Below, piece by piece: positions 11,755 through 63,296 of a stretch of DNA of 64,000 nucleotides (its first letter is position 1; every line of letters starts with the position of its first letter). This stretch comes from a virus. Location: IMG/VR virus record IMGVR_UViG_3300046028_007828, positions 12,533 to 76,532 of that record, one strand, 5' to 3'. The translations under genes and the position numbers were made by a program. The notes under the pieces are model-generated. The model worked only from the letters and a program-made list of their open reading frames with translations, did not search any database and was not told where the DNA came from.

Positions 11755-12249
11755 ATGGCAGAACTACTAGATGCAAATTCTATATTTTTTACAGCGTATG
11801 AACCAAAAGTTCAAAACCGCTTTATTATCGAGATAGACGGAATTCCCGCATATCTTATCAAAGCGGCGGCGCGTCCAACTATTGTAAACAACTCAATTAC
11901 CCTAGACCACATCAACTTGAAGCGCAAGCTCAAGGGAAAAAGTGAATGGTCCGACGTTGAAGTGACACTGTATGACGCTATTGTTCCGTCCGGCGCTCAA
12001 GCCTGTATGGAATGGGTGCGTCTTGCTCACGAATCCGTGACCGGTCGTAACGGCTATGCGGCATTCTATAAAAAGGATGTCAATATCGTTGTATTGGGTC
12101 CGGTCGGCGATAAAATCGAAAATTGGCAATTGAAGGGCGCATTCCCATCAACAGTCAATTTCAATGGCACGGGACTTGATTGGAGCGCACAAGAAGCTCT
12201 GACCATCAACATGACGCTCACTTACGACTACGCGATACTTCAATATTGA
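11755..12249 (+). CDS. Tail tube protein (T4 gp19-like)
   Basis: EPKVQNRF, GKSEWSDVEVTLYD, YKKDV, WQLKGAFP, LTYDYA. Confidence 0.93.
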   Translation: MAELLDANSIFFTAYEPKVQNRFIIEIDGIPAYLIKAAARPTIVNNSITLDHINLKRKLKGKSEWSDVEVTLYDAIVPSGAQACMEWVRLAHESVTGRNGYAAFYKKDVNIVVLGPVGDKIENWQLKGAFPSTVNFNGTGLDWSAQEALTINMTLTYDYAILQY

Positions 12250-12271: not shown

Positions 12272-12300
12272 AAGTCCCCTATGAAAATAGGGGATTTTTT
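12272..12300 (+). terminator. Intrinsic terminator after tail tube
   Basis: AAGTCCCCTAT-GAAA-ATAGGGGATTT + T-run. Confidence 0.85.
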
Positions 12301-12301
12301 A

Positions 12302-12329
12302 TTGACATATACAAAATTATCCGCATACT
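12302..12329 (+). promoter_or_regulatory. Promoter for release factor gene
   Basis: TTGACA-16nt-CATACT, 10 nt before ATG 12340. Confidence 0.65.
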
Positions 12330-12339
12330 TATATTCGCT

Positions 12340-13081
12340 ATGAAGACACAAACAACATATTACTCGAATAACTCGGGCAACCCATCGGGAGGCTCTGCTA
12401 GCTCTTGGGGGTCACTTTGACGCGAGAGGTGTGTTGGTTGAAGTAATTTCTGGCGAGGGCGGGGATGATTCAAAATTATTCACCGAGCAACTGTTCATAG
12501 CTTATCTGGCGTTCATGGAAAAAAATGGACTGGAAGCTGAGTTGGAAGAAACCGGACCCAGCAAATTCAGTTTTGTGTGTTCGGATATGAAAGCTGAATC
12601 TTTGTTTGATTCCGAGACTGGGACGCATTGTGTACAACGCATTCCAAAGAACGACCGAGGTGGTAGGAAACATACATCTTACGTTGCCGTGACCGTAACG
12701 AGGTTACTGCAACAGAACAATGAAATGAAGGAATCTGATTTGGAAGAATCATTCCAACGAGGACATGGAAACGGTGGACAACACCAGAACAAAACGTCAA
12801 GTGCAGTGCGACTGAAACACATCCCAACTGGGTTGGAAGTTTTCATTAACGGACGAAGTCAGCAAGCCAATCGAAGAACTGCCAGACTGTGTTTGGCGGG
12901 TAAAATAAAGCAGTTTTCGTCCAAGTCGGGTAATTCTACTAATTATAGCGGCGCTGGTCGCGGAGATAAGGTCCGCACATACAACTATGCTGATAACCGA
13001 ATTACTGACCACAGAAATGGAGCTAAGTGTCACATGATAGACAGTGTTATGAAAGAAGGAAGATTTGAACTTTTACGCTAA
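12340..13081 (+). CDS. Class I peptide chain release factor (RF1-like, lacking domain 1), predicted to be expressed by +1 programmed frameshift: ORF0 12340..12417 joined to 12419..13081 (~246 aa)
   Basis: GGQ motif (GNGGQHQNKTSSAVRLKHIPTG), GEGGDD alpha5 tip, HCVQRIPKNDRGGRKHTS recognition loop, KVRTYNY..NRITDHR; 26-codon ORF0 ends GGG TCA CTT TGA C and the +1 frame runs into ORF 12431. Confidence 0.88.
12406..12421 (+). other. prfB-type +1 ribosomal frameshift cassette
   Basis: TGGGGG-TCA-CTT-TGA-C: SD-like run 3 nt upstream of the slippery CTT, then TGA-C (cf. E. coli prfB AGGGGG TAT CTT TGA C). Confidence 0.85.
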
Positions 13082-13234
13082 TTCTTTCTTATATTCATTT
13101 TGGACTTGACGGAAGTATATAACACTGTGTACAATACTTGAGTTATAACGACAGCAACTAAATAAATTCAGTTAACTAGCATTAAAAATAAAATAAGTTA
13201 TATTTATATATACTAAAAATAATAACAACTTAAA

Positions 13235-13483
13235 ATGAATAAATTTGAATTAAAATCTTTAATAAAAGAGGTTATAAAAGAAGTGAGGAATAAGTCAGAA
13301 ACAAAACAAAAATTGAATAGAGTTGTTAGTTCATATATTACTTCTCCCGGAGAAAAAAATCCTTGCTTATATATTAACATTCAGATTGAAGCAAAAGATA
13401 TGGATTGTGCAGAAAAATGTAGAAAAGATATATTATCAGATTTAGAAAAAAATCACGACATAAAAATCCAAAAGGAAACTTAA
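13235..13483 (+). CDS. Hypothetical, putative head-internal protein
   Basis: N-terminus MNKFELKSLIKEVIKE; TATTTATA at 13201. Confidence 0.65.
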   Translation: MNKFELKSLIKEVIKEVRNKSETKQKLNRVVSSYITSPGEKNPCLYINIQIEAKDMDCAEKCRKDILSDLEKNHDIKIQKET

Positions 13484-62600: not shown

Positions 62601-62760
62601 TTAGATTCTTGCAAGACGGTGTTCCTTTGAATTGCAATTCAATCGAAGTGACCGCAGCTGAAGTCAGTGGTGAATGATATAATGGCATTATTTCTCCCAT
62701 AAAGGAGAATATCTGGGTTCGACTCCCAGTTTACCGAAAAGCTGACATGAGGCAAAACTT
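62601..62760 (+). ncRNA. Composite RNA containing a tRNA-like domain (62668..62737) with 6-nt anticodon loop and no CCA
   Basis: TGGTGAA/TTTACCG acceptor, TTCTCC-CATAAA-GGAGAA, CTGGG-TTCGACT-CCCAG; enclosed by GTCAG/CTGAC. Confidence 0.55.
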
Positions 62761-63218: not shown

Positions 63219-63296
63219 GGCCATGTGACGTAACTGGATAAACGTGTTAGTTTTAGAAACTAAATTCTGTGGGTTCGAGTCCCACCTTGGCTACCA
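63219..63296 (+). tRNA. tRNA-Leu(TAG), short variable loop
   Basis: GGCCATG/CTTGGCT, loop TT-TAG-AA, 5-nt variable region, A73, CCA. Confidence 0.8.

Follow-up and report, generated by a model that had tools for sequence, protein, structure and literature searches.

The textbook mechanism of RF2 autoregulation is a programmed +1 shift at CUU-UGA. In the bacterial RF2 gene, prfB, the autoregulatory +1 site consists of an SD-like GGGGG, a gap of 3 nt and the sequence CUU UGA C at approximately codon 26 (PMC12421855, PMC5009743, PMC10798248). The SD-blind host Flavobacterium johnsoniae shifts at prfB with an efficiency of only about 7%, and the SD is not needed there (PMC10798248). The RF1 family was stated in 2006 not to use frameshifting (PMC1586002), and a frameshifting review from 2016 treats the CUU-UGA device under RF2 only (PMC5009743). 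A release factor can recognize codons and release peptides without its domain 1, which is needed for RF3 coupling (PMC1586002); PrfH (RF-H), which is paired with RtcB2, is a release-factor paralog lacking this domain (PMC1586002; PDB 9mor). Among phages, the recoded Lak, Agate and Jade carry full-length RF1/RF2 in code-change modules together with suppressor tRNAs (bioRxiv 10.1101/2021.08.26.457843). In the searchable literature we found frameshifting described neither for RF1-type nor for phage release factors, and no account of frameshift-gated, domain-1-less phage release factors.

The locus analyzed here lies in a 64,000-nucleotide stretch (the window) of a 76.5 kb IMG/VR record, estimated to be 32% complete, whose source is a T4-like giant phage of lake water. 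We consider it probable that a monocistronic gene occupies 12302-13081 and encodes a supplementary release factor whose synthesis is gated by termination; the fused product, predicted to be 246 aa long, is RF1-derived and lacks domain 1. The sequence comparisons below support a prfB-type +1 frameshift cassette as the gate of this RF1-like body, while an actual shift of the ribosome, a dependence of that shift on RF2 and a benefit to the phage are what we infer.

Compared with prfB, the cassette is base-for-base the same in the defining positions, the leader is of similar length, and a class-I release factor follows in the +1 frame. The product of prfB is, however, RF2, with a leader that forms the N-terminus of domain 1, whereas here the factor is RF1-derived and phage-borne and the leader is a low-complexity tag; in addition to the UGA gate of prfB, the family described below also has UAG or UAA gates, sometimes doubled. 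PrfH similarly lacks domain 1 and keeps GGQ and the domain 2/4 body, but the match to it is weak, the RF1-type GEGGDD, VQR, HTS and RTYN are retained here, and the upstream gene encodes a tail tube and is not rtcB; no frameshift has been reported for prfH, unlike the phage factor. The factors of Lak, Agate and Jade are likewise class-I release factors encoded by phages, with a presumed role in adjusting termination while the infection runs, but the present contig has the standard code, all three stops in use and no suppressor tRNA, and its factor is truncated and, by prediction, frameshift-gated. Closest in sequence and fold is canonical RF1 (prfA), the sister clade in trees, from which the factor differs by scores below the equivalog cut-offs, by the missing domain 1 and by PKN in place of PxT; distant family members have PxT. 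In this family, the switch known from RF2 stands in front of an RF1-derived truncated phage factor.

The shift cassette and its transcription unit

The features of the unit are listed below in window positions. The clade referred to comprises eight distinct close relatives with DNA, at 63-78% identity.

11755-12249: tail-tube gene
12272-12297, + strand: intrinsic-terminator-like hairpin 3' of the tail-tube gene, an 11-pair stem with a T run; upstream boundary of the unit
12302-12329, + strand: sigma-70-like promoter, TTGACA at 12302-07, a 16-nt spacer and CATACT at 12324-29; 10/12 matches
12340-12420, + strand: leader ORF in frame 0, 26 codons plus TGA, with a frame-0 third-position excess and a kept ...WGSL end
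12388-12392, + strand: upstream SD-like GGAGG, inside GGGAGGC (12387-93); invariant in six clade members
12407-12411, + strand: SD-like GGGGG, 3 nt 5' of the slippery CTT, in the position of the prfB stimulator
12415-12421, + strand: shift site CTT TGA C, with CTT at 12415-17, TGA at 12418-20 and C at 12421
12419-13081, + strand: +1-frame ORF of the release-factor body, 220 residues long (DARGVLVEV...FELLR) and closed by TAA
12431-12436, + strand: GTG 12431 and TTG 12434, the sole canonical starts near the 5' end of the body frame
12452-12469, + strand: GEGGDD, the RF1-type helix alpha-5 tip, which reads U1 of the stop codon
12644-12652, + strand: PKN tripeptide, aligned with RF1 PxT (PVT of Thermotoga maritima RF1)
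12773-12781, + strand: GGQ catalytic motif, invariant in both family alignments

The initial annotation had proposed a 26-codon ORF leading through a prfB-type shift site into a release-factor ORF, and the sequence bears this out. On the plus strand, ATG 12340-12342 opens 26 sense codons for the peptide MKTQTTYYSNNSGNPSGGSASSWGSL, followed by TGA, and the 3' end of this leader reads TGG GGG TCA CTT TGA C, i.e. a weak stop context in which UGA is followed by C (12421). From 12419 the +1 frame continues as GAC GCG AGA GGT GTG (12431), the proposed D-A-R-G-V, and runs into the GGQ ORF with no break until TAA 13079-81. Upstream, this frame is limited by TGA 12341-43 and open from 12344, and in that open stretch no ATG, GTG or TTG occurs 5' of GTG 12431. 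The predicted junction peptide of the shifted product is TQTTYYSNNSGNPSGGSASSWGSLDAR. Salmonella prfB, our reference gene, matches at every defining position (GGGGG tat CTT TGA c, with a leader of 25 codons); the claim that the site lies near codon 26 was right as to its position, the UGA being codon 27 here versus codon 26 in enterobacterial prfB. Since GGGGGNNNCTTTGA has a single occurrence in the 64 kb, both strands counted, and appeared in 0 of 100 dinucleotide-preserving shuffles, the presence of the cassette before a release-factor body is not due to chance.

The segment GGGAGGC (12387-12393), situated 19 nt 5' of GGGGG, is invariant in six clade members though the neighboring codons vary, and it has no counterpart in the Salmonella prfB leader used as reference. 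A relic first gate in the leader of the window (GGGAGGCTCTGCTAGC) was considered and dropped, being inconsistent among clade members. Like GGAGG, TGGGGG (12406-11 in the window) is invariant in six clade members, and such nucleotide invariance, in six sequences whose synonymous sites are heavily substituted elsewhere, argues that GGAGG (12388-92) and TGGGGG may act as RNA elements.

The 3' end of the predicted promoter lies 10 nt from the leader ATG, with the same spacing in six of the eight clade members, so that the mRNA would be almost leaderless and the leader is probably translated from such an mRNA. This near-leaderless arrangement fits the contig as a whole, in which SD-like 4-mers precede only 3 of 78 crude ORFs; the earlier remark that clear SDs are few elsewhere, yet that an SD-like run is present at the shift site, is thereby confirmed. 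The sigma-70-like promoter also hints that the release-factor gene belongs to a different (earlier) transcription class than its structural neighbors. The neighbor on the 5' side is the tail-tube gene, and the ORFs that come next on the 3' side are short. TATTTATA stands ahead of the following gene, which has its ATG at 13235 (window 13201-13208 and 13106-13135).

An RF1-type body without domain 1

The body was compared with Pfam and NCBIfam profiles, solved structures and trees. With Pfam, RF-1 (PF00472) was found above its gathering score (75.4 bits, cut-off 35), as was PCRF (PF03462; 63.8 bits, cut-off 24), the latter match being to the C-terminal half of the profile (positions 98-194 of 194). 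The NCBIfam RF1 models scored highest, at 161.8 bits for NF001859 (cut-off 400) and 151.4 for TIGR00019 (cut-off 423.25), i.e. below the equivalog level, followed by RF2 (TIGR00020; 119.6-123.7 bits, cut-off 370), PrfH (TIGR03072; 62.5 bits, cut-off 166.65) and ArfB (35 bits). Coverage of the RF1 model extends over positions 102-329 of 347, and since the matches start at 102-110, domain 1 is absent. The SPF tripeptide of RF2 is missing as well, and beside PKN the factor retains HTS and the glutamine of VQR. The region of helix 7 and the switch loop is shorter than in canonical RF1.

Structure comparison gave a similar picture. The best solved-structure match is RF1 with 119 bits, against 82 for RF2 and 45.5 for PrfH, and the AlphaFold2 model (pLDDT 87) superposes on domains 2-4 of free RF1/RF2, with Foldseek TM values of 0.80 to 1rq0 (RF1) and 0.83 to 2ihr (RF2). 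In trees with canonical RF1 references, taken from a generic GGQ-pattern scan of genome contigs, and with RF2 as outgroup, the short factors form one clade beside canonical RF1 (FastTree SH-like 99; IQ-TREE SH-aLRT 98). By these profile, structure and tree comparisons the body is RF1-derived (162 bits for RF1 versus 120 for RF2), a sister clade of canonical RF1 and not of RF2, and without domain 1, in agreement with the original description of an RF1-like body. That description had also called the leader low-complexity in place of RF domain 1, and this holds too, as it is a Ser/Gly/Asn/Thr-rich 26-mer unrelated to that domain. Taken together, the RF1 scores, structure matches and trees indicate an RF2-style switch attached to an RF1-derived, domain-1-less protein.

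Conservation and variation of the gate

In the clade, TTTGA stands in register at all eight loci, as CTT TGA at seven and as GTT TGA at one (L010), and a leader ATG is found 22-27 codons upstream at each of them, with the ...WGSL leader end kept. The alignment of related loci that had been suggested as a check for a conserved shift site behind a variable leader therefore came out positive. The GTT TGA of L010 is a poorer slip site and counts against the frameshift reading. In another eight clade proteins, whose calls begin at alternative starts upstream, the predicted junction reads F-[DE], which is the translation of C-TTT-GAN; for P0014, P0015, P0018, P0024, P0032 and P0021 the sites were deduced solely from this protein-level F-[DE] read-through.

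Substitution patterns allow the two frames to be told apart. The spacer codon is always Ser, encoded by TCA, TCG, TCT or AGT, and the maintenance of Ser across codon families (TCN vs AGT) points to selection on the frame-0 peptide. Among four leaders of equal length, differences on frame-0 codon positions 1, 2 and 3 number 32, 31 and 57, and the synonymous share, 34% in frame 0, drops to 17% and 8% when the other two frames are read. Residues of the +1 frame are conserved from the shift site on ([DE]-A-R-G-V), and downstream of the site this frame has 120 synonymous versus 51 non-synonymous differences. Judging from these comparisons, the coding-frame signal moves from frame 0 to +1 at the shift site, and the body 3' of it is under purifying selection.

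The wider family comprises 108 distinct homologous loci for which sufficient upstream sequence was available. They were drawn from metagenomes, from viral contigs in IMG/VR (up to 570 kb) and from one published huge-phage genome, and most of them lie on large phage contigs. Out of these, 75 are gated (56 by a single site and 19 by a tandem pair), a plain ATG is seen in 27, and the other 6 were left unassigned; among the distinct IMG/VR viral loci, 30 of 41 are gated. The body-proximal stop of the 75 gated loci is TGA in 47, TAG in 27 and TAA in one, and an outermost leader with ATG is present in 74. Counted by site, the P-site codon is CTT at 89 of 94, with an SD-like run upstream at 55 of 94. 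Family-wide, the base after the stop is most often C or G (TGAC 23, TGAG 20, TAGC 28), while A is rare. The switch is kept in family members down to about 35% identity. As a separate observation, TGT (Cys) occupies the E site ahead of CTT in 39 of the 94 cases, mostly where an SD-like run is lacking.

In the tandem loci the two +1 sites are 35-70 nt apart, with GGAGG or GGGGG 3 nt 5' in most, and the stop combinations are TAG+TAG, TAA+TAG, TAA+TGA, TAG+TGA and TGA+TGA. Since the frame between the sites contains no ATG, expression would need two successive slips. One example is L171:2880-3010, on the 595-kb huge phage LR756511.1; further tandem loci are L054, L036, L014, L066, L035, L018, L023, L034, L045, L039 and L032, as well as L037, L069, L050, L081, L077, L187, L190, L192, L195, L198 and L209. 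TAA is frequent at the first gate of tandems (6/19) and nearly absent in the body-proximal position (1/75). L059:300-395 possibly has three serial sites with all three stops (CTT TAA C, CTT TAG C and CTT TGA T); its intermediate frames contain ATGs, so obligatory shifts may be fewer than three. Two database proteins labeled as from Planctomycetota MAGs raised the idea of the short factor as a chromosomal gene in that group. In 151 sampled Planctomycetota genomes, with at most two matches per genome, the short factor was not found, and this origin was set aside, as the matches listed were full-length and some ended at a contig edge.

Alternative readings and the role of the gate

A one-base disruption of the frame near the 5' end has the look of an indel, and the gene could in principle be broken, by pseudogenization or by an assembly or sequencing error. 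Across many samples, however, 75 of the 108 independent loci share this disruption at the same hexamer, the exact stretch was recovered from 23 lake-water metagenome runs over five years (2020-2025), and the body is under purifying selection 3' of the site; conservation and recurrence therefore exclude this reading as nearly as can be said. It is also very improbable that no frameshift takes place, with the protein starting at GTG 12431 or TTG 12434, either directly with GAGAGG as SD or by reinitiation once the ribosome has terminated at the leader's UGA, and the prfB likeness being incidental. In the window both start codons do lie 11-14 nt after the UGA, and the TTG is kept in five of the eight clade members. 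The codons of other relatives at these two positions are, however, GTT/GTA and CTT/CTC/TTA, and L004, L009 and L087, which retain both CTT TGA and the leader, lack any ATG, GTG or TTG where the body begins; in many distant homologs a body-frame start is wholly absent. Furthermore, conservation of the +1 frame begins at the site itself, and the first beta-strand of the AlphaFold2 model begins at residue 2 past it. The initial annotation had named homologs starting at GTG or TTG without a conserved CTTTGA as the observation that would speak for such starts; across the clade and the wider loci examined, the outcome favors the frameshift. With GAGAGG just upstream, GTG 12431 or TTG 12434 could give some frameshift-independent product in this window, possibly as a minor route, which cannot explain the relatives.

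Given a frameshift, the question is which factor closes the gate. The Gln of VQR and the overall RF1 character suggest a factor reading UAA and UAG only, in which case the gate would report on host RF2. The proposal of the initial annotation that the factor is made only when host RF2 activity falls, for instance under defense or shut-off, goes further than these comparisons support directly. A closed loop as in prfB, where the factor reads UGA, shuts its own gate and sets its own level, is possible, though we think it rather unlikely; the change from Thr to Asn in the tripeptide (PKN) would then perhaps relax the reading of stop-codon position 2. Such a loop is the established prfB logic, a TGA gate is present in every member of the window's PxN clade with a readable site, and TAG is almost unused as a stop in the contig; for TAG-gated family members with a PxT loop, self-recognition is the default expectation. 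On the other hand, the TGA gate is older than the T-to-N change, as L009 and P0032 have PHT with TGA, and one PxN lineage (L186, PDN) has a TAG gate, while the Gln of VQR is of RF1 type. Counted by lineage, PxN goes with TGA in four and with TAG in one, which is indistinguishable from background. Gates also differ between proteins that are about 80% identical and have the same recognition loops, e.g. L078 (TGA) vs L079 and L072 (TAG), or L031 (TAG) vs L068 (TGA), and the tree requires at least 12 changes between TAG and TGA gates. As the gate codon flips with constant loops, its identity does not track the known specificity determinants, which fits either a sensor of host capacity or an omnipotent factor. 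Nor is there a clear association of the gate stop with stop usage in flanking ORFs, which in these crude and small gene sets is 73/35/31 (TAA/TGA/TAG) at TGA-gated and 46/43/34 at TAG-gated loci. The omnipotent version, which we consider unlikely, holds that PKN lets the factor read G as well as A at stop position 2, so that it would be UGA-terminating (RF2-like or omnipotent) with its own feedback loop, mixed and tandem gates setting the gain. If this were true, the family would include a natural, self-limiting release factor of bacterial type that terminates at UGA too.

The phage itself has the standard code and a coding density of 91%, and the 78 crude ORFs of the whole contig end in TAA (60), TGA (17) or TAG (1); in the flanks of close relatives, TAG is used by 6 of 32 ORFs. 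Its tail tube is nearest to that of Microcystis phage Mel-JY01 (62%), followed by Flavobacterium phages (50%), and the host lineage probably makes little use of SD sequences. At least 14 tRNA genes are present on the contig, and no suppressor tRNA is found among the contig's 14 tRNAs. A tRNA-Leu with anticodon UAG is encoded at window 63219-63296. At the Ty1 +1 site of yeast, the tRNA that slips is a tRNA-Leu(UAG) decoding CUU through wobble, and the phage tRNA-Leu(UAG) might similarly decode the shift-site CUU and favor slippage. Another predicted tRNA, of 70 nt (window 62668-62737), was reported by ARAGORN with its identity uncalled and a two-base anticodon (ta); by eye its loop reads CATAAAG, with A and not U at position 33.

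In the reading preferred here, that of a termination-gated supplementary factor, ribosomes would initiate at ATG 12340 on the nearly leaderless transcript, translate 26 codons and then pause, the P site being occupied by peptidyl-tRNA-Leu on CUU and the A site by UGA-C. A fast RF2-type factor would then release a useless 26-residue peptide, whereas slow termination would allow the tRNA to slip from CUU to UUU (12416-18), with GAC (12419-21) as the next codon and domains 2-4 with an intact GGQ as the product. Pairing of GGGGG, 3 nt upstream, with the 16S rRNA tail would assist the slip where the host allows it; given the SD-poor genome and the case of F. johnsoniae prfB, GGGGG may not act in the real host. 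As release by the RF2-type factor competes with the slip, full-length output would, by analogy with the known prfB mechanism, rise as UGA-termination capacity falls. The factor would thereby serve a giant phage equipped with a tRNA array as well, and we suggest that it tops up termination once host shut-off stops the renewal of host factors. A PKN factor that is RF1-like (UAA/UAG) cannot restore UGA termination, which leaves the physiological logic incomplete.

Lastly, the RF2-type cassette on an RF1-derived phage factor suggests that the device either evolved convergently or was captured. Such genes are truncated or given wrong starts by gene callers, and database entries begin at varied internal or upstream alternative codons. 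The natural variants, i.e. single and double gates, three stops and PxT or PxN loops, make the encoding of release-factor specificity testable, and likewise the roles of domain 1 and RF3 coupling and the tuning of frameshift sensors in hosts without Shine-Dalgarno pairing. From the family as a whole it seems that large phages sense how much termination capacity the cell has and supplement it.
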